64,000 nucleotides of DNA, taken from the NCBI GenBank assembly GCA_965209035.1, contig OZ242372.1, positions 1,824,001 through 1,888,000 of the forward strand, in the 5' to 3' direction. The notes under the pieces are model-generated. The model made no database searches and was not told the DNA's origin. It was given only the letters and a program-made list of their open reading frames with translations. Source of the stretch: Gammaproteobacteria bacterium (GTDB lineage Bacteria; Pseudomonadota; Gammaproteobacteria; CBDBNL01; JAAOII01). Position numbers and translations under genes: made by a program. Shown in pieces: positions 4,838-60,824 of the stretch; the stretch's first letter is position 1, and each line of letters begins with the position of its first letter.

Positions 4838-5851
4838 ATGAGTGAACAACAATTTGGTTGGGGGCTAATTGGGGCAAGTACCATCGCTTCCGAATGGATG
4901 ATCGGTGCAATCAACGCCCAAAAAGGGAATCGGTGTGTCGGCGTTTTTAGCTCGAATCCGCAACGCGGACGGGATTATGCCGCCAAAAACGGCATGGCAA
5001 AACATTATGAGAACTTGGATGCTCTCTTGGCGGACGAAGAAGTCCGGGCGGTTTACATTTCCACGACCAACGAACTGCACAAAGAACAATGTCTGCGGGC
5101 GGCGGCGGCCGGCAAGCATGTTTTGTGTGAAAAACCCTTGGCAATGTCCGTGGCGGATGCGACGGACATGGTGAGAGCCTGCGAGAAGGCCGAGGTGGTC
5201 ATGGCAACCAACCACCATTTGCGTAACGCCGCTTCGCATTTGAAGATTAAAGAACTGACGGATGCGGGTGAAATCGGCGAGGTGATTGCCGCACGTGTTT
5301 TTCATGCGGCTTACTTGCCGGTACATTTGCAAGGATGGCGGTTGGAACGGCCGGATGCCGGCGGCGGTGTCATCCCGGATATTACGGTGCATGATGCGGA
5401 TACGCTAAGGTTTCACTTGGACGAGGACCCGGAGGAGGTGGTTGCCTTGGAACAGAATACGGGCATGGGTAAAAACAAATTGGAGGACGGCGCGATGAGC
5501 GTGATGCGTTTTCCTTCCGGTGTCATCGCCCAGACACACGAATCGTTTGCCGTGCGTTATGCCGGCAGCGGTTTTGAATTGCACGGGACGCGCGGCAGTA
5601 TTATGGCAACAGGCGTGATGACTCAGCAACCCAAAGGTAAAATTCGCCTCATTAATGAACAGGGCGAGCGGCCGGTTGAATATGCCCCGCACAATCTTTA
5701 CGAGAGATCCTTGCGTTTGTTTGCGGCTGCGATGTGCGGCCAAGGCCGGCCGGCCGCGGACGGCACGGACGGCGTTAAGTCGCTTGCGGTGGCGTTGGCC
5801 GTCAAAGAGTCTTGCCAAACTGGCAAGGCTGTTCGGGTTCGTTATTCGTGA
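4838..5851 (+). CDS. Gfo/Idh/MocA oxidoreductase, 1,5-anhydro-D-fructose reductase-like
   Basis: WGLIGASTIA, GKHVLCEKPLA, DITVHDAD; AAGGA RBS before ATG 4838. Confidence 0.85.
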   Translation: MSEQQFGWGLIGASTIASEWMIGAINAQKGNRCVGVFSSNPQRGRDYAAKNGMAKHYENLDALLADEEVRAVYISTTNELHKEQCLRAAAAGKHVLCEKPLAMSVADATDMVRACEKAEVVMATNHHLRNAASHLKIKELTDAGEIGEVIAARVFHAAYLPVHLQGWRLERPDAGGGVIPDITVHDADTLRFHLDEDPEEVVALEQNTGMGKNKLEDGAMSVMRFPSGVIAQTHESFAVRYAGSGFELHGTRGSIMATGVMTQQPKGKIRLINEQGERPVEYAPHNLYERSLRLFAAAMCGQGRPAADGTDGVKSLAVALAVKESCQTGKAVRVRYS

Positions 5852-7443
5852 AGAAACTCGTTTCCGCGGGACAAGCGGCTTCTTTTATTAAAGACCGGGC
5901 GGTTTTAACCGTCTCTTCGTCTTCCGGCCTGGGATGCCCGGATGCTTTGCTAAGCGCACTGGGAAACAGGTACCGAAAGGAAAATGCTCCAAACGCGCTC
6001 ACCTCGATCCATCCTATTGCGGCCGGCGACATGTATGGTATTAAAGGCATAGACCATATCGCACAGCCGGGGCTATTGGAACGAGCCATTGCCGGCTCCT
6101 ATCCCAGCGGCCCTTCGTCCTTGCCGATGCCGGCAATTTGGCGGATGATTACCGAGGATCGATTAGCGGGATACAATTTGCCATCCGGGATTCTCTTTGA
6201 TATGCATCGGGAGGCGGCGCGCGGCGGCCCCGGTGTTTTAACTCGGGTGGGTCTCGATACCTATGTGGATCCAAAACTCGAAGGCGGGGCGATGAATGCC
6301 AAGGCGGCCGCGGCTCCTTTAATGCGGCGCGTGACATTTGAAGGCGAGGAATGGTTATTCTTGCCGGTGATTCGTCCCAATGTGGCATTTATCCGGGCGA
6401 CCACGGCGGATACGCACGGCAACCTAACCTATGAACACGAGGGGGCTGTTCTTGGCGCTTTGGATCAGGCAATTGCGGTTCGCAACAACGGGGGAGTGGT
6501 TATCGCGCAGGTCAAACGCCTGGCCGAGCGCGGCAGTTTGAATACCCGGGATGTGCATGTCCCCGGCCATCTGGTGGATCATGTCGTGTTGGACGGGGAG
6601 CAGCGTCAAACAACGCAGACCGATTACAACCCCGCGATTTCGGGCGAAGTGCGTGTCCCCTGGGAGAAACTGGAAACACATTTGCCTTATGGTGTGGAAA
6701 AGGTGATTGCCCGCCGTGCGGCGACGGAGTTGAGCGTGGGAGATGTAGCCAACCTCGGTTTTGGCATTTCGGCGACAGTTCCTTATATCCTTGCCGAGGA
6801 GGGGATGCCTCTGGCGGTCACCTGGGTGATTGAACAGGGGGCGGTCGGCGGTTTGCCGGCATTGGATTTTGCTTTCGGTTGTGCTTCCAATGCGGATGCG
6901 ATTATCCCAAGTCCCAGTCAGTTTAATTTCTTCCAAGGCGGCGGGTTTGATTTTTCGTTTCTGTCTTTCTTGGAAGTGGATACGCACGGCAATGTGAATG
7001 TTTCCAAACTGGCAAAGCGCCCTTACCTGACTGCCGGCTGTGGCGGGTTTGTGGATATCACGAGTAATGCGCGCAACCTGGTGTTTGGCGGTCTTTTTGC
7101 CGCGGGGGCGGATCTCACCGTGAGTCCCAAAGGGGTCCGCGTCAACAAACAGGGCAAGTTCGCAAAATTTGTTGAAAAAGTAGAGCAGGTTTCTTTTTCC
7201 GGGAAACGGGCTGCGGAACTCGGGCAGAATGTTCTCTATGTTACCGAGCGTTGTGTGATGAAACTCACTCCGGCGGGATTGGTGATTATCGAGAAGGCGC
7301 CGGGTATCGATCTAAAGAAAGATGTTTTGGAACAGATGCGTGCCGATGTTAAGGTGGCGGACGAGATCAAAGATATGCCTCTTTCACTTTTTGGCGAGGG
7401 GCGAGTTGGTCTTTCTCTTGCGTCCTCGTCCGGTTCAAAATAA
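5848..7443 (+). CDS. acyl-CoA:acetate/3-ketoacid CoA-transferase (YdiF-like, fused alpha/beta)
   Basis: GVLTRVGLDTYVDP, NLGFGI, WVIEQG, GCGGFVDIT, YVTERCV; GTG start overlaps upstream stop (GTGA). Confidence 0.85.
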   Translation: MKKLVSAGQAASFIKDRAVLTVSSSSGLGCPDALLSALGNRYRKENAPNALTSIHPIAAGDMYGIKGIDHIAQPGLLERAIAGSYPSGPSSLPMPAIWRMITEDRLAGYNLPSGILFDMHREAARGGPGVLTRVGLDTYVDPKLEGGAMNAKAAAAPLMRRVTFEGEEWLFLPVIRPNVAFIRATTADTHGNLTYEHEGAVLGALDQAIAVRNNGGVVIAQVKRLAERGSLNTRDVHVPGHLVDHVVLDGEQRQTTQTDYNPAISGEVRVPWEKLETHLPYGVEKVIARRAATELSVGDVANLGFGISATVPYILAEEGMPLAVTWVIEQGAVGGLPALDFAFGCASNADAIIPSPSQFNFFQGGGFDFSFLSFLEVDTHGNVNVSKLAKRPYLTAGCGGFVDITSNARNLVFGGLFAAGADLTVSPKGVRVNKQGKFAKFVEKVEQVSFSGKRAAELGQNVLYVTERCVMKLTPAGLVIIEKAPGIDLKKDVLEQMRADVKVADEIKDMPLSLFGEGRVGLSLASSSGSK

Positions 7444-7463
7444 GTTTAAACCGGTACACAGAC

Positions 7464-8249
7464 ATGCCCGCCCAATCTTCCGTTTTACGTACCGAGAGAA
7501 AAGAAAACGCCTTGGTGGCGGTTATTGATAACCCGAAGCGAGCCAATGTCTTAACGAGAGAGGCATTGCAAAGGTTGGAGGAATTGACAGATGAGTTGGA
7601 TGCGGACAAAGATCTGCGTGCGATGATCATTACGGGTAGCGGCGACAAGGTCTTTTGTGCCGGTGCGGATATCGGTGAGTGGTCATCCATGTCGCCGCGT
7701 GACTATGCGAACGAGTGGATTGGTTTGGGACATCGCGTTTTTGGCAGGCTGGCACATGCCGCCAAGCCGGTGATCGCGGCGATTAATGGCCATACTTTTG
7801 GCGGCGGTCTGGAACTTGCGGCCGCGTGTGATTTGCGAGTTGCGGTACGCGATAAGTTGTTCGGCTTGCCCGAACTCTCTCTGGGGATCATCCCCGGCTG
7901 GTCCGGCACACAGCGTCTGGCACGCGAACTGCCGCCGGCTCTGTTGCGGGAGATGCTTTTTACCGGCTTTCGTCCGAATACCGCCAGGATGCGCCAACAC
8001 GGGTTTGTCAATACGGAGACGGAAGCCGGTCAGGCACTCGAAGTGGCACTGGCGATGGTTCGCAATATTGCCGAACTTGCCCCCGTAGCGGTGGAAACCG
8101 CAAAGAAGGCTGTCGGGCTTGCAATGGGTGAAAATAAGGAGATGTTGGCGGAGATGCTTGCCGGCGGCTTGGTTGCCGCGACCTATGATGCAAAGCACGG
8201 CACGGAATCTTTTAAGAATAAACAGACGCCGGCTTGGAAGGGTGAATAG
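7464..8249 (+). CDS. enoyl-CoA hydratase/isomerase family protein
   Basis: FCAGADI, AAINGHTFGGGLELAAACDLR, FGLPE, PGWSGTQRL. Confidence 0.88.
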   Translation: MPAQSSVLRTERKENALVAVIDNPKRANVLTREALQRLEELTDELDADKDLRAMIITGSGDKVFCAGADIGEWSSMSPRDYANEWIGLGHRVFGRLAHAAKPVIAAINGHTFGGGLELAAACDLRVAVRDKLFGLPELSLGIIPGWSGTQRLARELPPALLREMLFTGFRPNTARMRQHGFVNTETEAGQALEVALAMVRNIAELAPVAVETAKKAVGLAMGENKEMLAEMLAGGLVAATYDAKHGTESFKNKQTPAWKGE

Positions 8250-8290
8250 GCAAGGCGAATAAGCAAGTAGAATAAACGAAAGACATATAT

Positions 8291-9823
8291 ATGCCGGAAA
8301 GCTCTTTTAAGGATTGGAATATCTGCCATGGCGAAAGAATTCGCCCTCTGCCCGAAAAAATATTTACGGGCAAACTGTTAATCAACGGCGTCCGACAAAA
8401 CGCAAAGTCCGGCAAGATGTTTGAAACCCGAAGCCCCGCCCACGGCATTCCCGTTGGCAACTATGCGGAAGCGGGCACGGAAGATACGGATTTGGCAATG
8501 GCGGCTGCGCGCCATGCTTTTGACGAAGGACCCTGGCCGAAGATGTCGGGCAAGGACAGATCTGCTATTCTAAAAAGGGTTGCAGTTTTGATTTTAGAGA
8601 GAATCGAGGAGATTGCGTTTTACGAATCTTTGGAGAGCGGCAAGCCCATAGTGCAGGCAAGAGATGAGATTCAAATCGCCGCGGATCTGTGGGAATATGC
8701 GGCGGCACTTGCGCGGAGCGATCAAGGTGGCAGTCACAATAACCTGGGCGAAAATGTCCTGGGGTTAACAATCCGAGAGCCGGTCGGGGTGGTGGCAATG
8801 ATCATGCCTTGGAATTTTCCGCTTCTCATCGCCTGCCAAAAACTTCCGTTTGCTTTGGCGGCGGGATCTTGTTGTGTGCTAAAGCCATCCGAGTTAACTT
8901 CCGCCAGCACGGTAATGCTTGGTGATATTCTTCTTGCCGCCGACCTGCCGCCGGGTGTTGTGAATATATTGTTAGGCAAAGGAGACCCGGTCGGACAGGC
9001 AATGATTTCACATCCGCAGACGGATATGACCTCGTTCACCGGTTCCACCCAAGTGGGCAAGGCGGTATTGCGTGCATCCGCGGAGCGTATTAATCGCACC
9101 TCGTTGGAACTTGGTGGCAAAAACCCACAGGTCATTTTCCCGGACTGCGACTGGCAGGCCATGACAGATGCGGTCGTTTTTGGTATGTGTTTTAATGCGG
9201 GCGAGTGTTGTAACAGCGGTTCGCGTGCTCTTGTGCATCGGGATATAGCGGAGAGGTTTATTGAGGATGTGGTGAGTCTGGCGTGCAAGGTTCCTTTGGG
9301 GGATCCGTTGCATCCGTCTGTCAAGATGGGAGCCATCATTTCCAAGCAGCATTATGCCAAAATTACGGGCTATGTAAAGGAGGCAACTGAGAAGGGGGCG
9401 AGGGTTTGTCTGGGTGGAGACAGTATTCGGATTACGGGGGCGGACGGATTGTTTTATCCGCCGACGGTTCTCGCGGATCTTTCCGCGGACATGCCGGCGG
9501 TGCGCGAAGAAATTTTTGGTCCCGTTCTTTCGGTGATCCCTTTTGCCGATACGGAGGAGGCAATCCGTTTGGCAAATGACAGTCCTTACGGGCTTTCCGC
9601 GGGAGTTTGGAGTCGCGATATAGAAACCTGCATGCGGTTCGCCCGACAGGTAAAAGCCGGAACCGTCTGGGTGAACGGCTGGATGGATGGCTTTGCCGAG
9701 TTGCCTTTCGGCGGCTTTAAGACCAGCGGCTTGGGGCGCGAACTCGGCCATGCCGGACTGCACGAATTTCAAGAAACCAAGACCATTCAACTTCACGGAC
9801 CGGAGCGCGGACGCTGGTTATAA
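8291..9823 (+). CDS. NAD(P)-dependent aldehyde dehydrogenase
   Basis: PWNFP, FTGST, LELGGKNP, NAGECC catalytic Cys, EEIFGPV, PFGGFK. Confidence 0.92.
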   Translation: MPESSFKDWNICHGERIRPLPEKIFTGKLLINGVRQNAKSGKMFETRSPAHGIPVGNYAEAGTEDTDLAMAAARHAFDEGPWPKMSGKDRSAILKRVAVLILERIEEIAFYESLESGKPIVQARDEIQIAADLWEYAAALARSDQGGSHNNLGENVLGLTIREPVGVVAMIMPWNFPLLIACQKLPFALAAGSCCVLKPSELTSASTVMLGDILLAADLPPGVVNILLGKGDPVGQAMISHPQTDMTSFTGSTQVGKAVLRASAERINRTSLELGGKNPQVIFPDCDWQAMTDAVVFGMCFNAGECCNSGSRALVHRDIAERFIEDVVSLACKVPLGDPLHPSVKMGAIISKQHYAKITGYVKEATEKGARVCLGGDSIRITGADGLFYPPTVLADLSADMPAVREEIFGPVLSVIPFADTEEAIRLANDSPYGLSAGVWSRDIETCMRFARQVKAGTVWVNGWMDGFAELPFGGFKTSGLGRELGHAGLHEFQETKTIQLHGPERGRWL

Positions 9824-10027: not shown

Positions 10028-10915
10028 ATGAGAGAAAGATTACAAACAATGCTTCCCAAACTGGTGCTATCGCCCAGTTTGGTGTTGATGTTGGTATTCG
10101 TTTACTTTTTCATTCTTTGGACGGGTTATCTTTCGTTCACCGATTCCAAATTTTTGCCTTCTTACGGCTGGGTCGGCGATGCCAATTATGAGAGACTGTG
10201 GGGTCTGCGTCATTGGAAAACCGCTTTAACCAACCTGGCTATTTTTGGCTTTCTTTACATCTTCATATGCACTGTGATTGGCCTCCTGTTGGCAATTCTT
10301 TTGGACCAGCAGATTCGCGGCGAGGGCGTTTTGCGTCCTTTGTATCTTTATCCGATGGCATTGTCTTTTATTGTTACGGGGACGGCATGGAAGTGGTTTC
10401 TGGATCCGGGCATAGGTGTTGAACACATCATTCAAAGTTGGGGATTTGAAGACTTTGGTTTTAGATGGATTAAGAGCCGCAGTATGGCGATTTATTGTGT
10501 GGTTTTGGCGGCGGTTTGGCAAACATCCGGTTTTGTGATGGCGATGTTTCTTGCGGGGCTCAGAGGGATTGATGGTGAAATTCTTAAGGCGGCTCAGGTA
10601 GATGGCGCACGCAGTTGGCGACTTTACCTGCGAGTTGTGTTGCCATTGCTTAAGCCAATCTTTCTTTCCGTATTCGTCATTCTGGGGCATTTGGCTATTA
10701 AGTCCTACGATCTTGTGATTGCTCTTACCAACGGCGGCCCCGGGCGGGCAACCGAATTGCCGGCAACATTCATGTATTCTTACACATTTACCCGCAATCA
10801 AATGGGTGTGGGTGCGGCATCGTCTATTGTGATGCTGCTCATGATTGCCTCAATTATCGTTCCCTATCTTTACGCGGAAATCAAATCGCAAAGCAGGAAA
10901 GAAGAACAAAAATGA
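10028..10915 (+). CDS. carbohydrate ABC transporter permease 1
   Basis: multi-TM; EAA-like loop EILKAAQVDGA. Confidence 0.9.
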   Translation: MRERLQTMLPKLVLSPSLVLMLVFVYFFILWTGYLSFTDSKFLPSYGWVGDANYERLWGLRHWKTALTNLAIFGFLYIFICTVIGLLLAILLDQQIRGEGVLRPLYLYPMALSFIVTGTAWKWFLDPGIGVEHIIQSWGFEDFGFRWIKSRSMAIYCVVLAAVWQTSGFVMAMFLAGLRGIDGEILKAAQVDGARSWRLYLRVVLPLLKPIFLSVFVILGHLAIKSYDLVIALTNGGPGRATELPATFMYSYTFTRNQMGVGAASSIVMLLMIASIIVPYLYAEIKSQSRKEEQK

Positions 10916-11778
10916 ATACAAACAGACTACCGGAACTATTGGGCAGAGTTCTTATTTACGCGGTCCTGCTATTTTTTGTGATCTTTTATAGTTTGCCCTT
11001 ATATGTCATGCTGACGAATTCGTTCAAACCGCTTAGCGAGATACGCTCCGGCGGGATGCTTTACTTGCCGGATGTTTTTACCGTGGCGCCGTGGCTTAAG
11101 GCATGGTCCACCGCACAGATTGGCGTGGAAGCAACCGGGTTGCGTATTTACTTTTGGAATTCCATCAAAATGGTTGTACCTGCCGTTATCATTTCCACAA
11201 TCATTGGCGCGCTCAACGGTTATGTTCTTACCAAATGGAGATTTCGCGGTCATAACCTGATATTCGGGATGCTGTTGTTTTCCTGTTTTATTCCTTTTCA
11301 AGCCATTCTCATTCCGACCGCTCGCTTGCTCGGGCTTCTGGGGTTGGCAGGCACCACATCCGGCCTGGTTCTCGTGCATGTTGCCTATGGCATTGGTTTT
11401 ACCACCTTGTTTTTTCGCAACTACTATATGGCATTCCCGGATGAATTGATGAAGGCCGCCCAGGTAGATGGCGCGGGTTTCTTTACGATTTTTACCCGTA
11501 TTTTGTTACCGACATCCTTGCCGATTATCGTCGTTAGCGTTATCTGGCAGTTCACCAATGTTTGGAACGACTTCTTATTCGGCGCTTCTTATTCAAGTGC
11601 CTTATCGCAACCCATGACCGTGGCACTTAATAATCTGGTCAGTTCCTCCACAGGCGTAAAAGAATATAATGTCCATTTTGCCGGAGCCATCATGGCGGCT
11701 CTGCCGACTCTGGTGGTGTATGTCGTGGCGGGCAAGTATTTTCTGCGCGGGCTGATGGCCGGCTCGGTCAAAGGTTGA
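10912..11778 (+). CDS. carbohydrate ABC transporter permease 2
   Basis: DELMKAAQVDGA loop, WNDFLFG, C-terminal GLMAGSVKG. Confidence 0.9.
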   Translation: MNTNRLPELLGRVLIYAVLLFFVIFYSLPLYVMLTNSFKPLSEIRSGGMLYLPDVFTVAPWLKAWSTAQIGVEATGLRIYFWNSIKMVVPAVIISTIIGALNGYVLTKWRFRGHNLIFGMLLFSCFIPFQAILIPTARLLGLLGLAGTTSGLVLVHVAYGIGFTTLFFRNYYMAFPDELMKAAQVDGAGFFTIFTRILLPTSLPIIVVSVIWQFTNVWNDFLFGASYSSALSQPMTVALNNLVSSSTGVKEYNVHFAGAIMAALPTLVVYVVAGKYFLRGLMAGSVKG

Positions 11779-11818
11779 GCGGCCGGGTTTTTGGAAGGTC
11801 TGCCCGTTTGGATTAGGT

Positions 11819-11996
11819 CGATTTTATTTTTATCATTTTTCTATAGATAGTTTGCTACTATGAGTTTTTTACAAATTAATCATTTATACAAGAGTTTTGG
11901 CAGTGCCAAGATTCTGGATAACATTGATCTTGCCGCGAAAGAAGGCGAGTTTCTTGTCTTGGTCGGCCCTTCGGGCTGCGGTAAATCAACGCTACT
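11819..11996 (+). repeat. ~178-bp direct repeat, copy 1 (copy 2 at 13574-13751)
   Basis: manual alignment: same length, 2 mismatches upstream of ATG plus third-codon-position differences only. Confidence 0.95.
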
Positions 11997-12006
11997 TTTA
12001 TTATGA
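11860..12006 (+). pseudogene. duplicated 5' stub (48 codons) of the ABC ATPase gene at 13615
   Basis: MSFLQ...GPSGCGKSTLL identical in amino acids to 13615..; stop TGA 12004-12006 overlaps ATG 12003 of next gene. Confidence 0.9.
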
Positions 12007-13511
12007 TGAAAACTTTGCGTTTGTTCGGTTATATTACTTTATTCAGTATTGGCGTCATCATCGTCTTGTCGGGTATTCTAACGGCAGTTTCTTTTTTGGA
12101 TAAAGGAAACAGCAGATGGTCGTTGCTTTTTGAAAATGTCAGAGAATCAGTGGAACTGATTTATGAGGGTGATATTAATCAGCTCATAGCAAGAGGAAAC
12201 AGAAAACTGCATTCTTTTTATCCGGCATCACATTCGGTTGTGACAAAATCGACAAAAATAGCAATGCTATATCACCCGTGGGGGATGGATTTCGCTCCTA
12301 TTAATGGAATAGATCAATTATTGGTAACTGAAAGATTTCGGAAGAATATTGCGGTTATTGAGAATGACGAACTGTGGGGAAAATTGAATGTAGATATTGT
12401 GGAAAACATTACTGCGGAAAAAGAAGATTCTGAATTGACAAAGAAAAAAGTATATACTTTCCAGCTCTACGATGTTGCTTTTGATCCGGATTATGATAAT
12501 CAAGATAATCAATATATTTATGTTTCGGCTATTATCAAGACAAAAGGCCCGGGGGAATTAGGTTGCGAGAATCATGCGATCCTTAAGATCCGCTATGATT
12601 ATGAGAAAAAGAAAATCTTAAATAAGCCGATTACACAAGATGACATTATTTTTGAAACAAATGATACAAAAGCCGGAGGTACGGATTGCCGGGCAAGAGA
12701 AAGAGGTGTTGTTGTAGGAAACCGTATTCATTTTTTGCGGGACAAAACACTTTTATTTTCCATCGGTTATAGTAATAATGATCATCTTGCCGAGCATTCT
12801 GCCGAGGTTCCTGCGGCCCAAGACATGGGATACTTTGAGAGCAAGTTACTGCGTATGACCCGCAATGGCATAGCAGTTTGTGATCGGCATCCTTTGGCTT
12901 CCAATCCTTTTTGCGATAGGTCGGAGAAGGCGGCAAAATACATTCACACTTTAGGTCACAAAGATATTCAAGGAATTACGGAAGATGCGGACGGTAATAT
13001 CTGGACTTCCGAACACGGGCCCCATCGTGGCGATGAAATTAATCGCATAGTTGCGGGGAATAATTACGGTTTTCCTTATTTGTGTGTTAGGTGTCGTCCC
13101 TATGTTCCTCCTTTCCCGATCAGTTACTCCGAATATGAAAAGTCTCCCGCACTTTTATCTGCAAGGTTGATTGCGGATGGCCATTCCAATCCGTCGAATT
13201 TTGTGCAAACTTTGATAAAACCTGTGTACTCTTGGGAAGACTATGCTTGGAATTTTTCTATAGCCCCATCTGGCATAGATTATTACAGCTATGAAGGGGA
13301 GTTTCATAACAATTTGTTCATTGCAACTCTGGCTAACGAAAAATTGGAGAGGCTAAAAATTCAAAATGACGGAAAAATTTTAAGAGAGGATCCTCTTTAT
13401 CAAGGAATTCGCATCAGAGATGTTCAAGTACGGGATGCAGAAAATATTTATGTTTTGATAGACCATGGCGAAGGAGATACCGTGTTGAAGTTTACCTTAA
13501 GAACCAAATGA
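12003..13511 (+). CDS. PQQ-dependent glucose/sorbosone dehydrogenase family (beta-propeller) with N-terminal membrane anchor
   Basis: LYHPWGMDF, TLGHKDIQG, WTSEHGPHRGDEINRIVAGNNYGFP, IAPSG, RIRDV; more AT-rich than flanks. Confidence 0.8.
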   Translation: MMKTLRLFGYITLFSIGVIIVLSGILTAVSFLDKGNSRWSLLFENVRESVELIYEGDINQLIARGNRKLHSFYPASHSVVTKSTKIAMLYHPWGMDFAPINGIDQLLVTERFRKNIAVIENDELWGKLNVDIVENITAEKEDSELTKKKVYTFQLYDVAFDPDYDNQDNQYIYVSAIIKTKGPGELGCENHAILKIRYDYEKKKILNKPITQDDIIFETNDTKAGGTDCRARERGVVVGNRIHFLRDKTLLFSIGYSNNDHLAEHSAEVPAAQDMGYFESKLLRMTRNGIAVCDRHPLASNPFCDRSEKAAKYIHTLGHKDIQGITEDADGNIWTSEHGPHRGDEINRIVAGNNYGFPYLCVRCRPYVPPFPISYSEYEKSPALLSARLIADGHSNPSNFVQTLIKPVYSWEDYAWNFSIAPSGIDYYSYEGEFHNNLFIATLANEKLERLKIQNDGKILREDPLYQGIRIRDVQVRDAENIYVLIDHGEGDTVLKFTLRTK

Positions 13512-13573
13512 TGAATTTTATTTGGAACAGAAAAGTGGATCTCATATACACGAGGGGCAACAAGAATAACTAA

Positions 13574-13751
13574 CGATTTTATTTTTATCATTTTTCTATA
13601 GATAGCTTGTTACTATGAGTTTTTTACAAATTAATCATTTATACAAGAGTTTTGGCAGTGCCAAGATTCTGGATAACATCGATCTCGCCGCCAAAGAAGG
13701 CGAGTTTCTTGTCTTGGTCGGCCCTTCGGGCTGCGGTAAGTCAACGCTCCT
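13574..13751 (+). repeat. ~178-bp direct repeat, copy 2
   Basis: matches 11819-11996. Confidence 0.95.
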
Positions 13752-14724
13752 CAATATCATTGCCGGCCTGATACCGCACGATAGCGGCGATATTGTCATA
13801 GGCGGTAAGAATGTTGTGGGTCTGCATCCTTCCAAACGCAATATTGCGATGGTGTTTCAGTCCTATGCCCTTTATCCGAATATGACGGTGGAACAGAACA
13901 TCTGTTTTGGAATGGAGATGAACCGAGTCCCCAAAGACAAGCGACGCAAAAAAGCCATGGATGTGGCAAAGATATTGCAATTGGAGAACTTGCTGCGTCG
14001 CAAGCCGAGCCAGTTATCCGGCGGGCAAAGGCAGCGCGTCGCCATGGGCAGGGCAATGGCAAGGTCGCCGCAGGTTTTTCTGTTTGATGAGCCTCTCTCC
14101 AATCTGGATGCCAAGTTGCGTTTGGAGATGCGTGCCGAAATAAAGAAACTCCATTTTGTCACCGGAACAACCATGGTTTATGTTACCCACGATCAGATAG
14201 AAGCGATGACGCTGGCAAGTCGCATTGCGGTGATGAATCAAGGAGTTATTCAACAATTCGGGACGCCGCGCGAAATTTATCATTCGCCGAATAACACATT
14301 TGTGGCGGGTTTTATGGGATCTCCGGCTATGAACCTGTTTGAGGTTTCTCTGAAATCAAAGGGGAGCAACCTTGCTGCCATTGGGCGGGATGCGAAAAAT
14401 AAGGATGTAACTTTCGTTGTTTCAAAACCTTCCGCGGCATTGAAAAAATACGCTAAATCCAAAGTGATTATGGGGATCCGTCCGGAGGGTATTTCCAACT
14501 CGGGCAGCGGTCCCGTGGCAAAAATGCAAAAAGTGAACTGCCAGGTGGATCTGGTAGACCCTATCGGCTCCGATACCCTGGTGACATTTATTCTAAGCGG
14601 TGTCAATGTTACCGCCAAGTTACCCGGCGACATCGCCGTGGAAATTAAAAAGAAGATCACGCTCTTTTTTAATATGGAGCGTGTCTGTTTCTTTGACAAG
14701 AAAACCGGCGAGAGAATCAATTAG
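13615..14724 (+). CDS. carbohydrate ABC transporter ATP-binding protein (MalK/UgpC family)
   Basis: Walker A GPSGCGKS, LSGGQRQR, FLFDEPLSNLD, YVTHDQ, C-terminal TOBE-like region. Confidence 0.93.
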   Translation: MSFLQINHLYKSFGSAKILDNIDLAAKEGEFLVLVGPSGCGKSTLLNIIAGLIPHDSGDIVIGGKNVVGLHPSKRNIAMVFQSYALYPNMTVEQNICFGMEMNRVPKDKRRKKAMDVAKILQLENLLRRKPSQLSGGQRQRVAMGRAMARSPQVFLFDEPLSNLDAKLRLEMRAEIKKLHFVTGTTMVYVTHDQIEAMTLASRIAVMNQGVIQQFGTPREIYHSPNNTFVAGFMGSPAMNLFEVSLKSKGSNLAAIGRDAKNKDVTFVVSKPSAALKKYAKSKVIMGIRPEGISNSGSGPVAKMQKVNCQVDLVDPIGSDTLVTFILSGVNVTAKLPGDIAVEIKKKITLFFNMERVCFFDKKTGERIN

Positions 14725-14732
14725 CATAAAAA

Positions 14733-15662
14733 ATGGAAATGTTCTTCGGTGGTATCGAAACTTTTTGTCATTTTGTTATTTTTGTAGCAAGTGTTTGGGC
14801 TATTGCGCTCGTTGTTTACATCTTTCTTTTTGCTTATCACTTCTATAATGCTACGGACAAGCGGGGAATCTGTTTTTTGAAACATTGGGCGTGCGGCATC
14901 GTTTGCTATAAGCCGTGTGGCATCTCGCCGGTTATTTTGAAAGCATTGCCGTTGAGGGATAAGAGTAAGAAGTCGGATGCGGATAAGAATGAGGGAGAAA
15001 AAACTGATAGTGTGCTTGCGGGAAAACGTAACTGGGTTGTCCAAGAAGATATTTTGATTACAATTAACGATTCATATACCGCGGCCTTGCTTGAGATTAA
15101 AAAAGGCGATAAAGTCTTAATTCCGCGGTGTTTTAGAACAGACGGGGCTTCTGTTCCGCGATCTTTTTGGTTTATCTCTTCTCCGACGGGCATGTTATTT
15201 CGTGCGGCTCTTTTACATGATTATGCTTGTCGTAAGGGTGAAATCATAATTGCTGGGAAATCGGCCCCTCTAAAAAAATCGATGTTATTTTGGGAACTTC
15301 TTTTTCTGCGCATCGCGATTGAGACCAACGGCCGGATTTCCTTGATTATTCATTTGATCCCATTTCTCGCTTTGGTTTGCTTTCGCCGCTTTGTCATATT
15401 GGTCACAAAATATTTGGTCCCATTTCTTGGGTTGGTCTGCTTTGGCTGGTTCTCCTGGTTCGGTAGAAAAAAAACTGCGGATGACGCAAATGACGAACCG
15501 GACAAAATATCCAAAAAGATATGGCAGTATGTCTACTTGGCGTTTAATCTTTTTATGGGCACTCTGATTCTTTATCTGCTTTTTCTATTTTTCCGTGAAT
15601 TCTTATGTCGTTTTTCATTTATTAAACCCCTATGTGAATTCCTCTCCTGCCTGATAGGGTAA
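14733..15662 (+). CDS. DUF1353-domain membrane protein
   Basis: FRTDGASVPR...RAALLHDY motif; hydrophobic N- and C-terminal segments; internal ~60-bp duplication (HLIPFLALVCF / YLVPFLGLVCF). Confidence 0.7.
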   Translation: MEMFFGGIETFCHFVIFVASVWAIALVVYIFLFAYHFYNATDKRGICFLKHWACGIVCYKPCGISPVILKALPLRDKSKKSDADKNEGEKTDSVLAGKRNWVVQEDILITINDSYTAALLEIKKGDKVLIPRCFRTDGASVPRSFWFISSPTGMLFRAALLHDYACRKGEIIIAGKSAPLKKSMLFWELLFLRIAIETNGRISLIIHLIPFLALVCFRRFVILVTKYLVPFLGLVCFGWFSWFGRKKTADDANDEPDKISKKIWQYVYLAFNLFMGTLILYLLFLFFREFLCRFSFIKPLCEFLSCLIG

Positions 15663-16031: not shown

Positions 16032-19000
16032 ATGAAAGCATTTGAGGCCTTAGAACAGATTCGCCGGGAAAGTGCCTCCACCTCAGATTTAGGGCGATCA
16101 TTTGAAAAATTGTTTTGTCAAGTGGCTATCAAGAGTCCCGAACTGGAAATTGAGTCCATATATCCGATAGCCCAATGGCCGGATGCACACAAACACGCAC
16201 TTGACGGAAGAGACATAGGCGTCGATCTGGTGGCAGTGCTCACTTCCGGTGATACGGTGGCAATACAATGCAAAGCATATTCTTCGAATACGCCGGTCAG
16301 TCGGGACGATGTTAGGAATTTTTTGGCGGGTTCTCAAAACTCGGTATTTACTTTGAGGTGGCTTGTGACAACCTCCGGCATAAATGATAATGTTCGGCAA
16401 ATGCTGGTGAACACAAATGTCAAAGTCCTGTACTTTACAGATTTTCATTCGGTTGAATTGGATACCGCGCAACAACCACCGCGCGAACTCTGGCCATTAC
16501 AACAAGAATCTTTGGAAAAAGTCGTACAAGGATTTAGTGAGCAGCCGAAGGAACAGGGGCGCGGCCGCTTGATAATGGCTTGCGGGACAGGTAAAACATT
16601 CACCGCACTACGCATTACGGAAAAACTGGTAGATTCTAACGGAACTATTTTGTTTCTGGCTCCCAGTATTGCCTTGGTGGCACAGGCACGGCGGGAATGG
16701 TTAACTCACAGTCGGCGGCCTCTGCAATGCACCGTGATTTGCTCGGATGCCACTGCCGGTTCCTCGGATACCCGGCAGAATGTGGAGGCTCTGCTTATGG
16801 AATTATCCTGCTCGGTCACTACGGAACCCGGGAAAATTGCTCGCTCTATTCTTAACAACCAAGAAAAGTTATCAAAATCCGGCGGCGTTTCGGTGGTATT
16901 CTGCACTTATCATTCACTGGATAAACTGATTACAGCACAAAAAGAATATCAACTCAAACCGTTTGACTTGGCAATAGTGGATGAGGCACATCGGACAGCG
17001 GGAACGCAATTAGAAGACACTGCCGATAGACGTCTGTTTAAGAAAATTCATTATGATGACGAAATTCGATGCCATAAACGCTTATATATGACAGCAACGC
17101 CCAAAATATATTCCGATAAATCCAAGTTTAAGATGCAAAGCCGTTATCCGGATTTACAAATCATAGATATGAATGACGAGGAAATCTATGGTCCTCTATT
17201 TTCACGACTTTCGTTTAAGGAGGCGGTCAAAAAAGATATGTTGACTAATGTCCGGGTTATCGCTCTTGGCTTGTCAGAAGATGAATTGGATACCGATATG
17301 CGCGAACAGTTTGAGCAGATCAGCAATGAGATAGAAGGGGTTGGAGGGCCACCGGAAATGCAAGAGTATTTGGCGGCAACTCTTATCTATATGGCTGTCA
17401 TGGGCTTGGGTAGAAAAGGGGATAGCAATCTCCCCGATAATTTGCCGAGCACAATCGTGTATGCTAACACGATTCGTAAGTCCAAATGGTTTACGCAAGT
17501 TCTTGAAGAGTTTAACTCCGGCTCCTTAAAACCGTTTGCTGATCTTCTTCACGGTAAACTAAAAGAAGTCACCGCCACTACCCCCCCCCCCCCCCCCCCC
17601 CCCCCACACACACACTGCCTCTCGTAAAAAAATAGAGGCTGTTCATTTGGATGCAAAGAGTAATGCATTCCAAAGAAAACAAGCATTGGATGCACTCAAT
17701 AGTGCCGAGGCAACCGGCACGAACAGGGTGATTAGTAATGTCCGATTATTTTCCGAAGGAGTGGATGTGCCGGCACTTAGCAGCATTGCTTTTCTAAACG
17801 CACGAGACAGCATCACTGATATTATTCAAGCCATCGGTCGGGTCATGCGTAAACCCGCCGGTGAATCTGCCAAGAAATATGGCTACATCATCGCCCCGTT
17901 TTACTTGGCGAGAGGAGAGAGTGTGGCAGAGGCACTGGAAAAGAAGTCGCCGCGCTTCGCAACTCTTGGCAAAGTATTGAGAGCACTCCTGTCCCATGAT
18001 GAAACCCTTAAAGATAATCTACAAGAGGCATTGCAGGTGGGGGTGGTAGCCCTAAAGAAAAAGGGGCCGAACGATGCCCAAGAAGAAGAGGGCGATTACG
18101 ATAGCACAAAACAGTTATCACTTTATTGGCATCAATTAGAGGGTATCCATCCGGAGATAGCCAATTACTGTGGGCTCGGTCATCGCGGTAAGTGGCTGGC
18201 GGAACGCATTATTAGTGCGGTTCAACGCGCAGCAAAGATTTTTGAAGAAGAGGGCGTTGCCAAGACATTGGCAATCTCATTGGGCAAGTCGGAGTCCTTA
18301 CTGGAAAGTCTTAATTCAGATGAGGCGGAGGGTGCCAAGTGGAAGCAAGACGCATGTAGCACATCTTCCCTGTTACTGATCAATGCTTGTTTGATGCATA
18401 AACGCCTTGAAGCAACCGGTAAATGTGAGGGCGAGGGCATAGCCAACTTGGATAAACTCACCGGCAAACAAGAAGTTCTCCCTGTTTTAATAGACAGTTG
18501 GCAAGTTATTTTGAAGCGAGATTACAAGCCCATTTTTGAGCAGGCAGTCCGGATATTGAATGATTTGCAGAAAGAACATAGCGATATTAAGAATTTGAAC
18601 AGGGCCTTGCGTCATCTGATCAATTGTGCCTATGAGATGGCAGAGGATTTGAACGAACTGGGCTATGATCATGCGGGCCCTTTGTATCATAAAATTCTGG
18701 AACACGCGGCAAGCCAAGGAGCCTTTTATACCAAAAACATATCCGCTCTCCTATTATCCAAACTGGCATTTAACAAAACATTTACCGACTGGAAAGATGC
18801 CGACAAAGTCCAAGAACTAAAAGTGTTGGACCCAAGTTGTGGAACGGGAACCTTGCTAATGGCAACGCTAAATACATTTAAACAAAGAGTCATAGCAGCC
18901 GGAAGTTTGAGCCGGGCAGAACCGGGAAACCTGCATAAGAACCTGGTAGAAAATTGTATTCATGGGTTTGATATTACACCCTATGCGGTTCAACTTGCTG

Positions 19001-20625
19001 CCTGCAATATGACACTTGGCGATCCAAATGTTTCCTATAAAAAAATGTGGCTATACACTCTGCCTTATGGACAGAAAAGTGGCAGGGATGAGGTTAAGGC
19101 GCATAATGTGCGTCAAGGCTCTTTGGAATTGCTTCTGCAAGAAGGCAGTGCTTCTGATAACGGGCAACACAATATGCAAGAGTTTTTACAGAAGTCGGCG
19201 CAAGGTTCCGGCTTGGAAGGGGGGACTGCTTCTTTGGGAGAGATAAGCAACTCCTATGATGCGGTCATTATGAATCCGCCCTATACGGATACCTCAAAGC
19301 AGAAGGGTCAATTCCCACTTGCGGTTGGTGAAGCAATGAGTGAGAGGCTGCAAATAATTGCCGGCCATCTTACCAAGAATGCGCCGGAAGAGGCTGCCGC
19401 TCTGGCAAAAATGTCTATAAGACCTTTCTTTAGTCCTCTTGCCGATCGCTTGGTGCATCCGGCCCGAGGCACCTTGGCAAAATTCATGCCTGCTACTGCA
19501 TGCACTGCTATGGGGGGAATTAAGGAAAGGCAGTTTTTGGCAAAGAGATTTCATATTGAAACCATTATTACCACGCATGATCCAAAGGATATTGCTTTTT
19601 CGGCTTCAACAAGCATTCACGAAAGCATACTCATCGCTCGCAGAGATACCGACAAGAACAAGCCGACAAGGTTTGTGCAGTTGGCGCATATGCCGCAAAC
19701 AGTGGAAGAAGTAGAGGTCCTGACAAACGCCATTGAAAAGTCTGAGATGGGAGACTGGGGCAATATCATTCACTGGCCCGCCCCAAAAGTTCAAGCAGGT
19801 GATTGGTCGCCGGTTCTTTGGTATTCGACTGATCTTTTAAATGCTATTCAGCAGATTCAACAACTGAAAGGACTCGCCCCATACAGGAGCGAAACATATT
19901 ATCCCGTCCTGGGGCAGAGTTTTAGAGGTATGTTTGATTATTTGGCAACATCGGAAAACGAAGCTAATCATAACAAAGCAATGCTTCAAGGGTTTGGAGC
20001 ATACTGTTCTATCAAAGAAGAATATCGCAAAACCATGCATTCGTCACCGGATAGCCTAGCAGTTCCCAAACAAGGGAAGGAAGAACAAGCAAAAAGATTA
20101 CTAAGTAAGGGCGGTCACGTGCTCATCCCGGGGCGGTTTAGCACCACAAGCGGGAGAGTGATGGCACTATATACGGAAGAACCGAGCATAGGAAGTGCAT
20201 ACCTGCCCATGGATAGCAGTGATGCAATGGATCGAAATACGGCAAAGGCCTTCACGGTTTTTCTTAACTCGTCCTTTGGTCTGTTACAATTCCTAAACAT
20301 TAGAACGAAAAAGCTGACTTATCCTCAGTTTGAGATGGGTAGTTTGAAAACATTGAGATTTCCGGTGGAAAGCCCGGATCTTTCACCTTTGGTTAAAGTT
20401 TTTAACAAAACAGCACAAGAGGAACTCTTAAGATTAAACAAAGCGAATGAAGACCCCGTTCGTAAAAAATTAGATTATGTGGTTGCCAAACTTTTGGGCG
20501 TAGAACCAGCCGAAACCGATAAATGGCGGACACTACTTGCACTAGAACCCACCATATCCAACAAACCTGCCACCAACAGGCCGAAAATAAAACAAGCCGA
20601 AGAGGATTCTCGCCGTTCCGCATAA
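16032..20625 (+). CDS. Type ISP-like single-polypeptide R-M enzyme (Mrr-type nuclease + SF2 helicase + N6-MTase + TRD), frameshifted at a poly-C tract
   Basis: DIGVDLVA...AIQCK; MACGTGKT; IVDEAH; MTATP; after the shift IEAVHLDA, FSEGVDVPAL, QAIGRVMRK; LDPSCGTGT; MNPPY. Removing one base joins ORFs 16032-17627 and 17647-20625 into 1530 aa. Confidence 0.85.
17581..17615 (+). repeat. C25 homopolymer followed by (AC)5
   Basis: read directly from sequence. Confidence 0.95.
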
Positions 20626-28432: not shown

Positions 28433-28631
28433 AACCCACACATTAATTCATATTGAAGGACAGGGTACAGCAACGCCTTCTACAGGTTAGTTCAATGACA
28501 ACTGAAACAAACTGCGTTGTTTAATAACAAACGCTAAGCACAAAAAAGCAAAGTTGTAAGGGCGGCAGGGTATAAAAATTGCCGGCAAGCCCTTATAAAA
28601 TAAGGATTTAAAAGAAGTTTCCGAAGTCAAG
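28433..28631 (+). mobile_element. solo right end of an IS1634-family element
   Basis: aligns with 60642-60824 and ends in the identical terminal repeat TTTCCGAAGTCAAG (28618-28631). Confidence 0.8.
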
Positions 28632-54103: not shown

Positions 54104-54143
54104 CTTGACTTCGGAAAGAATTTTTTAGATTTTTAAAAACTCT

Positions 54144-54220
54144 TGTATGATCCCACCGATTTTCGGACTTTTGTTGTTTTTGTAAAAACCGGATCGGCGA
54201 GAGTTGTTAAGGGAAAAACG
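54144..54220 (-). mobile_element. right-end stub of IS481-family element
   Basis: 62/65 identical to 59853-59917; begins with TGT terminus; minus strand encodes QLSPIRFLQK tail. Confidence 0.75.
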
Positions 54221-59852: not shown

Positions 59853-60206
59853 TGTATGATCCCACCTATTTTCGGACTTTTTTTATTTTTGTAAAAACCG
59901 GATCGGCGAGAGTTGTTTGAGAGCATAGTGGGGACGTCCGAGATGATACCAAGCCAGCCATGCGATGAACTTGGCGTTGAATGCCGGCATATCCTTTAAA
60001 CAGGAGATGCCGCACATGACAATCGAACTCTTCCCCCAAGGTTATTTTTTAAGGAGCGCGATTGAATCGTTCACAGCGTGCATTCATTTGCGGTTTCCCC
60101 AAAAACAACATAGTATGGGTATACCAGTGGGTGCTGCCGTTTGCTGTCACGACCCGGTGAAAGTCTTTGGCGAACTCACTGCCATTATCGGTGAGGACTT
60201 TCACTG
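59853..60206 (-). mobile_element. IS481-family transposase 3' remnant (integrase core) with right end
   Basis: minus strand reads VKVLTDNGSEFAKDF...PQMNARCERFNR* then, frameshifted, WLAWYHLGRPHYALKQLSP; terminus ...CATACA. Confidence 0.82.
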
Positions 60207-60740
60207 AGCACCGCAGCAATCAACCGGGCGATGCAAGAAATCGGTCTCTATGGCGTGCAGGCCTCGGCAAATATTGACTACCAAGCCGCCCGCATTTACT
60301 ACAAACAACTGTATGCGATTGAACACGGCTTTCGGGATCTCAAAAGCGATCTGCAGATCCGACCGACCTTCCATTGGAAACCCGAGCACATTTCGCCCTC
60401 TGCTATCTGGCGTTTGCCGCCATCCGCCGCTTGCGGTATGTCTCCTCCGCCAACAAAAGCCGGCACCCACCACCGTGTGGACCACCGAAATGCTGCCGTT
60501 CACTGAGCTGGCGGACCGACCGAAGCCGCAGCAAAAAACAAGACCGAGGAAATCGTCACCACCAAGAAGATCCTCAAAGAACTGCGCAACTTCAAAGCAA
60601 CTATCCAACGCAATCCCGTCGGCAACTATTACAGCAGCCCACACCCACTCACATTAGTTTACCTTGGGGGACAGCAGTGCATTCTACAGGCCGTTCAACT
60701 AAAACCCAAACAACTTGCTCTGTTGGATCACAAACACTAA
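60207..60740 (+). pseudogene. IS1634-family DDE transposase C-terminal remnant
   Basis: YKQLYAIEHGFRDLKSDLQIRPTFHWKP, frameshift, RAHFALCYLAF. Confidence 0.85.
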
Positions 60741-60824
60741 GCGCAAGCCAGGGCTGGCAAGGTATAAAAACGGCCCGCAAGCCCTTATAAGATCAAGATT
60801 TTTTAAGAAGTTTCCGAAGTCAAG

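Follow-up and report, generated by a model that had tools for sequence, protein, structure and literature searches.

An operon for a sugar ABC importer in the genome of a gammaproteobacterium (assembly coded G000, 2.24 Mb in two contigs) carries an additional gene of the GSDH family between the genes for its second permease and its ATPase, and this gene is bracketed by two copies of a segment that includes the beginning of the ATPase gene. The stretch studied here, the window, is the 64,000 nt at C1:1824001-1888000, and positions are those of the window unless they carry the prefix C1. The best explanation of the locus as a whole, and one that we consider likely, is that a horizontally acquired GSDH-family gene was inserted at this place by long target duplication; the manner of its joining we infer. 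The present case belongs to a known class of insertions, to which it adds a metabolic cargo placed within an operon behind a duplicated gene start. The parts of the locus are as follows.

11779..11818, + strand, unduplicated part of the spacer between permease 2 and ATPase
11819..11996, + strand, upstream repeat copy: a 41-nt leader, then ATPase codons 1-45 plus two bases from codon 46
11860..12006, + strand, stub open reading frame (ORF) of 48 codons: the ATPase N-terminus with Walker A, then Leu-Leu-stop, its TGA overlapping the cargo ATG
11997..13573, + strand, inserted DNA of 1,577 nt, with a GC content of 0.391 compared with 0.476 in the 3 kb on each side
12003..13511, + strand, cargo gene, 502 amino acids (aa), with a predicted N-terminal hydrophobic anchor and a GSDH domain (soluble quinoprotein glucose/aldose dehydrogenase-like)
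13512..13573, + strand, 62-nt 3' flank of the cargo, with no predicted terminator-like site
13574..13751, + strand, downstream repeat copy, comprising the leader of the intact ATPase gene and its 5' end

A repeat search places the two copies 1,755 nt apart and finds exactly two of them in the whole genome; they are 178 nt long and 96% identical (171/178). The edges are sharp, with ungapped identities in the 60 nt outside of 0.20 and 0.13, which is random, and a 178-nt match at this level cannot have arisen by chance. The stub reads the first 46 ATPase codons before its Leu-Leu-stop, matches Pfam ABC_tran over residues 19-46 (E 7.6e-8), and ends in an ATGA at 12003-12006 in which its stop and the cargo start overlap. 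Search, alignment and reading frames thus agree with the original prediction, which had described a direct repeat of about 178 bp made of the ATPase leader and about 46 codons on both sides of a dehydrogenase gene, and a stub kept in frame up to an ATGA overlap with that gene. It had also held that all coding differences between the copies are synonymous. There are seven mismatches in the alignment, two of them in the 41-nt leader (11851 and 11855) and the other five at third codon positions (11925, 11931, 11937, 11985 and 11994); these five codon pairs (ATT/ATC, CTT/CTC, GCG/GCC, AAA/AAG and CTA/CTC) are indeed synonymous in every case. A sixth pair that had been listed (CTT/CTC, codon 46) does not stand but is a boundary call, because its third base, 11997, is the first base outside the repeat. 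The copies have in common mismatch-free runs of 69 nt (11856-11924) and 47 nt (11938-11984), both of which exceed the minimal length for RecA recombination, and recombination between the copies could excise the cargo cleanly, leaving an intact ATPase gene with synonymous changes only.

In the proposed event a foreign gene would have entered between permease 2 and ATPase, with 178 bp of target duplicated around a 1,577-bp insert that brought no transposon ends. With the ATPase leader and start inside the duplicated piece, the downstream ATPase gene would stay whole and keep its own initiation region, and the upstream copy would become a 48-codon stub whose TGA overlaps the cargo ATG. The cargo would then be translated either by ribosomes finishing the stub or by fresh initiation at its AU-rich start. 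If so, insertion with long target duplication allows a metabolic gene to be placed inside an operon with the next gene left unbroken, since the start of that next gene is within the duplicated piece; the newcomer receives a leader reading frame ready for use, and through the repeats the gain can be undone.

Insertion with long target duplication, reportedly first described by Nobusato et al. in 2000, is a known but poorly understood route of bacterial gene gain whose mechanism has been open since then. As set out by Furuta, Abe and Kobayashi (2010, PMC2853133), restriction-modification genes insert with target duplications that are both long and variable and with no other mobile element, leaving repeat pairs that match at, for example, 417/423 or 384/412 positions; the class is reported there for several bacterial groups, mostly naturally competent, and is best known from Helicobacter. 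The life cycle proposed in the same paper has a unit that invades with a long duplication, amplifies through its repeats and is released, and for release or re-infection the authors state, in their treatment of that cycle, that there is no evidence. The locus resembles this class in its small, low-GC foreign insert between slightly diverged target repeats, which in the class are longer than 30 bp and reach about 420 bp (here 178 nt with sharp edges), and in having no transposase, integrase or inverted ends in an insert well under 20 kb, here 1,577 nt with one GSDH gene. It differs in that the cargo is metabolic and not defensive, in that a duplicated gene start within an operon gives a stub frame overlapping the cargo start, and in that the coding differences between the copies are synonymous only. 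Restriction or modification genes, which the insert does not contain, were a criterion of that paper's search and not part of the mechanism. The genome offers two leads on this route, namely the presence of active IS1634-family copies, with duplications just as long, beside insertions that have no such ends, and a synonymous-only repeat pair as a possible trace of transfer between strains; both are taken up below.

The junctions are present at single-copy depth, and depth parity and the assembly of the genome in two contigs support integration of the cargo in the chromosome. Three runs from one sample (X1-X3) contain 98% of the sampled sequence words, and in each of them a 1,649-nt contig corresponds to 11955-13603 without a difference, running from stub-specific variants through the entire cargo into the second repeat. 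Depth over the cargo is 9 in X1 (flanks 10.9 and 8.86), 20.8 in X2 (flanks 20.7 and 19.2) and 22.4 in X3 (flanks 29.5 and 25.7). An assembly artefact, in which two haplotypes were wrongly joined across the repeat or an empty chromosomal site exists beside a free circle of 1,755 bp, would draw on the collapse of the repeat into a single 166-nt k-mer contig (depth 13.6, 28.2 and 41.1 in X1, X2 and X3), which in X1 and X3 mixes the variants of both copies and carries the leader variants of the upstream one. Since the repeat is collapsed in k-mer contigs, the contig graph taken alone would also fit an empty site with a circle, and the three runs, all of a single sample, are probably the source of the assembly and so are not independent of it; these points count against an insertion. 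We nevertheless regard an artefact as extremely unlikely, since both novel junctions lie on one contig with stub-specific variants next to the cargo, the cargo has the depth of its flanks in three runs, the genome assembled in two contigs, and a 178-nt repeat is spanned by ordinary read pairs. A run from another sample (X4) was considered as a source of the empty-site allele and is not counted. It placed 118 reads, 99 of them only partly and 86 less than 90% alike, and many are probably from paralogs or other organisms; there is depth in 15 of 30 bins, with none in the 11 bins from 12033 to 13539 and 1-4x over parts of both flanks.

A different reading of the same structure makes the dehydrogenase gene an ancestral part of the operon that has since been lost in the relative G001, and here the comparison with relatives is informative. 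Only one of five other genomes of the order has the operon (G001, from the same family and another genus), and it is likewise the only one among 40 relatives in a DNA search. Its gene order is binding protein, permease 1, permease 2 and ATPase, with no dehydrogenase, a single ATPase start and a spacer of 6 nt between permease 2 and ATPase. Repeats of this kind would permit a scar-free loss, and only one comparator has the operon, which leaves some room for an ancestral gene. However, the repeat copies differ by 4%, compared with about 25% DNA difference between the two genomes in the permease gene (i.e. 96% identity between copies and about 75% between genomes at the locus), and the insertion is therefore much younger than the split between G000 and G001. 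Cargo GC at third codon positions (GC3) is 0.36 compared with 0.54 for the genome, and none of the 40 other genomes has a cargo relative above 46% identity, so that an ancestral gene seems most improbable. That a gene was inserted into the operon, as originally proposed, is borne out by its foreign composition, by the junction contigs and by the uninterrupted operon of G001. Some aspects of the comparison are less favorable to it. The 6-nt spacer of G001 cannot be aligned with the repeat leader or with the 81-nt spacer present here, and because of this the exact target can be placed only indirectly; moreover, the only empty site comes from another genus, with no conspecific genome in the comparison. 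A degenerate pattern for the ATPase N-terminus retrieved no stretches from metagenome contigs.

The original prediction saw no insertion sequence (IS) ends and no integrase at the locus, and three results uphold this. The 14-nt end of the IS1634-family element found elsewhere in the genome has no match within two mismatches in 11.8-13.8 kb and only chance-level matches at three; no terminal inverted repeat was detected at the cargo ends (local score 12, shuffle mean 14.2); and the ORFs scanned between 7464 and 20625 contain no integrase or transposase domains. The IS1634-family element is nonetheless relevant because of how it inserts. Its inverted ends are 14 nt long and its transposase, of 598 aa, reaches 301.9 bits against the IS1634-family model (cut-off 100); genome self-comparison gives the following copies, with fragments in the window.

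C1:97125-99109, 139400-141384, 802347-804331 and 2175608-2177592, identical copies of 1,985 bp
C1:735887-737856 and 1613439-1615408, copies of about 90%
28464-28630, 54104-54148 and 60202-60823, fragments in the window

All six full copies lie between perfect target duplications (170, 190, 212, 248, 162 and 564 nt), and a 429-nt derivative at C1:1620742-1621170 is between 295-nt repeats. For IS1634/IS1549, direct repeats of 8-514 bp on insertion are described by De Palmenaer et al. (2008, PMC2266710), with no mechanistic model in their account. There are in addition other unique, mostly low-GC inserts between sharp two-copy repeats of 105-443 nt, mostly holding defence genes, and these look like further insertions with long target duplication. 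Those at C1:63280-64493, 418001-420124, 807768-810573, 1342068-1344462, 2124205-2125975 and 1305290-1308625 have repeats of 121-443 nt with 87-95% identity, and include a 611-aa ORF without an assigned family as well as the following.

Bpu10I-like endonuclease gene, repeat of 179 nt, 94.4%
GmrSD gene, repeat of 121/127 nt, 92%
methylase gene inside an S49 peptidase gene, repeat of 443 nt, 93.9%
methylase-T5orf172 gene, repeat of 149 nt, 89.9%
family-11 glycosyltransferase gene, repeat of 251 nt, 87%

Some further candidates are tandem paralogs and are not counted as insertions. A 16-mer scan for shorter bracketing repeats returned 767 pairs, mostly from paralog families, and no claim on size is made below 90 nt. 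Separately, C1:1956423-1962971 contains many perfect 38-44-nt repeat pairs with irregular spacing, which, from the k-mer scan only, may be a CRISPR-like array or a repeat protein.

These elements raise the question of whether the duplication around the dehydrogenase gene was made by the genome's own IS1634-family transposase, acting in trans or on cryptic ends. The 178 nt of the repeat fall within the long and variable range of its duplications (162-564 nt at all six full copies and 295 nt at the derivative), and a transposase that scores far above the family cut-off is encoded in the same genome. The size agreement is, however, partly an artefact of the repeat search, which is blind under about 90 nt. 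The cargo insert has neither a transposase nor 14-nt inverted ends; allowing three mismatches, neither of its boundaries has an IS end, inverted repeats of every kind are absent from its termini, and the gene starts 6 nt inside the junction, too close for an end to fit between. No termini or sequence are common to the other non-IS inserts. IS1634-family elements are also not known from Helicobacter, the genus from which the class is best known according to Furuta, Abe and Kobayashi (PMC2853133). Overall the transposase seems quite improbable as the source of the duplication. It is a similarly long shot that the process behind the IS1634 duplications, whether widely staggered transposase cuts or a host pathway, also inserts end-less foreign DNA and so brought in the dehydrogenase gene at this locus as well as the endonuclease, GmrSD and methylase genes at others; were this so, insertion with long target duplication would be a side product of such transposases.

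A second question is how the two copies came to differ. Over the 46 codons, 90 of the 414 possible single-base changes are synonymous, and the probability that five of five are so is 0.0005-0.001 with both copies free to change, and 0.006-0.04 with the stub alone free and the ATPase copy accepting synonymous changes only. Three other truncated repeat copies in the genome have synonymous/non-synonymous counts of 5/5, 14/13 and 1/11 (20/29 in total), against which, when pooled, five synonymous differences give P = 0.017 by hand calculation. None of the seven differences is at any of the 92 first and second codon positions. These values and controls lend modest support to the earlier claim that the stub is not simply decaying, there being fewer missense differences than neutral decay predicts. 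Two origins had been proposed for the stub, a diverged allele acquired by Campbell-type integration and selection as a translational leader. The former fits the pattern; the latter does not explain it, because such selection would act against stops and frameshifts and not against missense changes. In the simplest explanation, the two copies diverged while each was part of a working ATPase gene, in different strains, and we see about an even chance that the differences are allelic and were brought in by recombination with a diverged strain.

There are two routes by which this could have happened. The copies would differ at every polymorphic site if, at integration, a circle of repeat plus cargo or an ends-in fragment had entered through the repeat in the manner of Campbell; alternatively, an ATPase allele could have been imported later, up to the edge of homology. 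In Campbell-type (single-crossover, ends-in) integration, a circle or vector carrying a fragment of its target is inserted between direct repeats of the homologous fragment. The likeness here is that a diverged donor allele of a conserved gene would give synonymous-only differences, although such integration leaves the origin of the first cargo-repeat junctions unexplained, and we infer both the donor allele and the circle. Taken a step further, the unit might move between strains as a circle that is excised through the repeats and re-enters by a single crossover, with the synonymous-only differences as its footprint. We put this forward tentatively, as a possibility that we incline against; if it is true, transfer of the circle would be the release-and-reinvasion step of the Kobayashi life cycle.

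The allelic reading has two competitors. The more straightforward of these is that the duplication was made in place with identical copies, that the seven differences are later mutations in a stub that is simply decaying, and that the lack of missense changes is luck. Several points speak for this and weigh against an allelic origin: the argument from synonymous changes comprises five sites; at four of the five the stub has A/T where the ATPase gene has G/C, which is expected also from AT-biased mutation in a relaxed stub; the three other truncated copies of the genome look neutral; and in the published class a repeat usually resembles its partner more than the empty site (e.g. 417/423 vs 345/370), judging from the examples given in PMC2853133. 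Decay has to contend with the low probability of the pattern, which persists with the ATPase copy restricted to synonymous changes, with its rarity relative to the genome's own controls, and with the untouched first and second codon positions, and we think it somewhat unlikely. The other competitor is purifying selection on the stub itself, which would be kept either as a small peptide or as a translated leader that cargo expression needs. Its 48-codon frame is open and ends in the ATGA overlap, its leader is nearly identical to that of the ATPase gene, and the neighbouring permease genes are also joined by an ATGA. This is improbable, however: a role as leader would weed out stops and frameshifts but leave missense changes alone, an ABC ATPase fragment of 48 residues that stops shortly past Walker A would hardly be expected to fold, an ATGA is one of three equally likely frame outcomes, and initiation without a Shine-Dalgarno motif is common in the genome. 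The relative G001 is too diverged to polarise the five variant codons.

The insert consists almost wholly of one intact gene of the GSDH family. The cargo gene has a GC content of 0.394 and the GC3 noted above, compared with genome values of 0.492 and 0.54. Its product scores 161.3 bits on Pfam GSDH PF07995 (gathering threshold 25; E 4.8e-47), with the domain over residues 90-360 and beyond, and it matches the sequences of PDB entries 7cdy, 2g8s and 1c9u, with an HGP-x-GDE-x-N stretch that aligns with 7cdy. The likeness to these soluble quinoprotein glucose/aldose sugar dehydrogenases is in the domain and in this stretch; the cargo differs in having about 85 additional N-terminal residues, starting with a hydrophobic stretch that would serve as an anchor, and in being at most 30% identical to named members. 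The nearest homologs are 46, 41 and 41% identical and the next is 30% (617 matches from 7,999 scored candidates). These 41-46% relatives are on ENA contigs, and searches of genome and metagenome contigs gave relatives at 24% only; across the 40 related genomes (41 with G000 counted), non-self matches reach at most 46% identity and at most 127 residues in length. A second, canonical GSDH paralog is present elsewhere in the genome. We thus take the cargo product to be a putative membrane-anchored GSDH-family protein resembling sugar dehydrogenases of the pyrroloquinoline quinone (PQQ) type, with a presumptive enzyme activity, and it is plausible, as the original prediction held, that it may match the sugar importer in function. 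Two points tell against its working as a PQQ enzyme. It scores 75.6 bits on NCBIfam TIGR03606, a PQQ-dehydrogenase subfamily, far under the cut-off of 434.55, and pqqE was not found in the genome, so that activity would need PQQ from outside. A pqqC search was silent in all 14 of its controls and is given no weight.

No terminator-like site was found on the + strand from 11143 to 14796, in a scan whose total is at shuffle level (7 vs 7.0), and a single transcript is therefore likely; the cargo is likely to be transcribed from the operon. The promoter scan is also at shuffle level (15 vs 12.5). Overlapping stop and start codons couple translation between many operon genes, and coupling from stub to cargo is plausible here, with the ATGA permitting termination and reinitiation; the stub TGA shares two bases with the cargo ATG, just as in the overlap of permeases 1 and 2, with the difference that the upstream frame is a truncated gene copy. 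At the junction, the other two frames would have given a long overlap or fused the stub in frame to the cargo. Twelve of the 14 gene starts inspected by eye have no clear Shine-Dalgarno motif, and its absence before the cargo is no evidence for coupling, because most of the sampled genes lack one. The cargo start is AU-rich and is predicted to be weakly structured, and coupling is thus not needed a priori, which detracts from the case for it.

The genes that flank the insertion encode an ABC importer of the CUT1 sugar type, as judged from their sequences, and are as follows.

10028..10915, + strand, ABC permease 1 (BPD_transp_1), 80% aa identity to its G001 ortholog; its stop overlaps the permease 2 start in an ATGA
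10912..11778, + strand, ABC permease 2 (BPD_transp_1), the final gene ahead of the insertion site, 84% aa identity to its G001 ortholog
13615..14724, + strand, intact ABC ATPase of the UgpC/MalK type (CUT1 sugar importers), 369 aa, with Pfam ABC_tran and OB_MalK

The 369-aa ORF at 13615-14724 confirms that the insertion has left the ATPase intact. It scores 433.3 bits on the NCBIfam UgpC subfamily model (cut-off 432) and aligns with its counterpart in G001, an ortholog, at 60% identity from end to end; named matches at 55-58% identity are alphaproteobacterial. The permeases (10028-11778), at 80 and 84%, are closer to those of G001 than are their neighbours (5812-9823 and the ATPase, 51-67%), and either their conservation is unusually high or the permeases have been exchanged. 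The gene for the substrate-binding protein, which in G001 is directly before permease 1, is intact at C1:2164620-2165882, 330 kb from the permease and ATPase genes. A block of aldehyde dehydrogenase, enoyl-CoA hydratase and CoA-transferase genes is on the opposite side and strand of the operon relative to G001. Directly after the ATPase gene there is a low-GC ORF (14733-15662) with a DUF1353 match and 40-nt imperfect direct repeats at 15352-15391 and 15412-15451. Further downstream, the ORFs at 16032-17627 and 17647-20625 jointly contain Mrr-type nuclease, helicase N- and C-lobe, N6 methylase and Eco57I-type domains, and resemble a single-polypeptide restriction-modification enzyme split between the helicase lobes.

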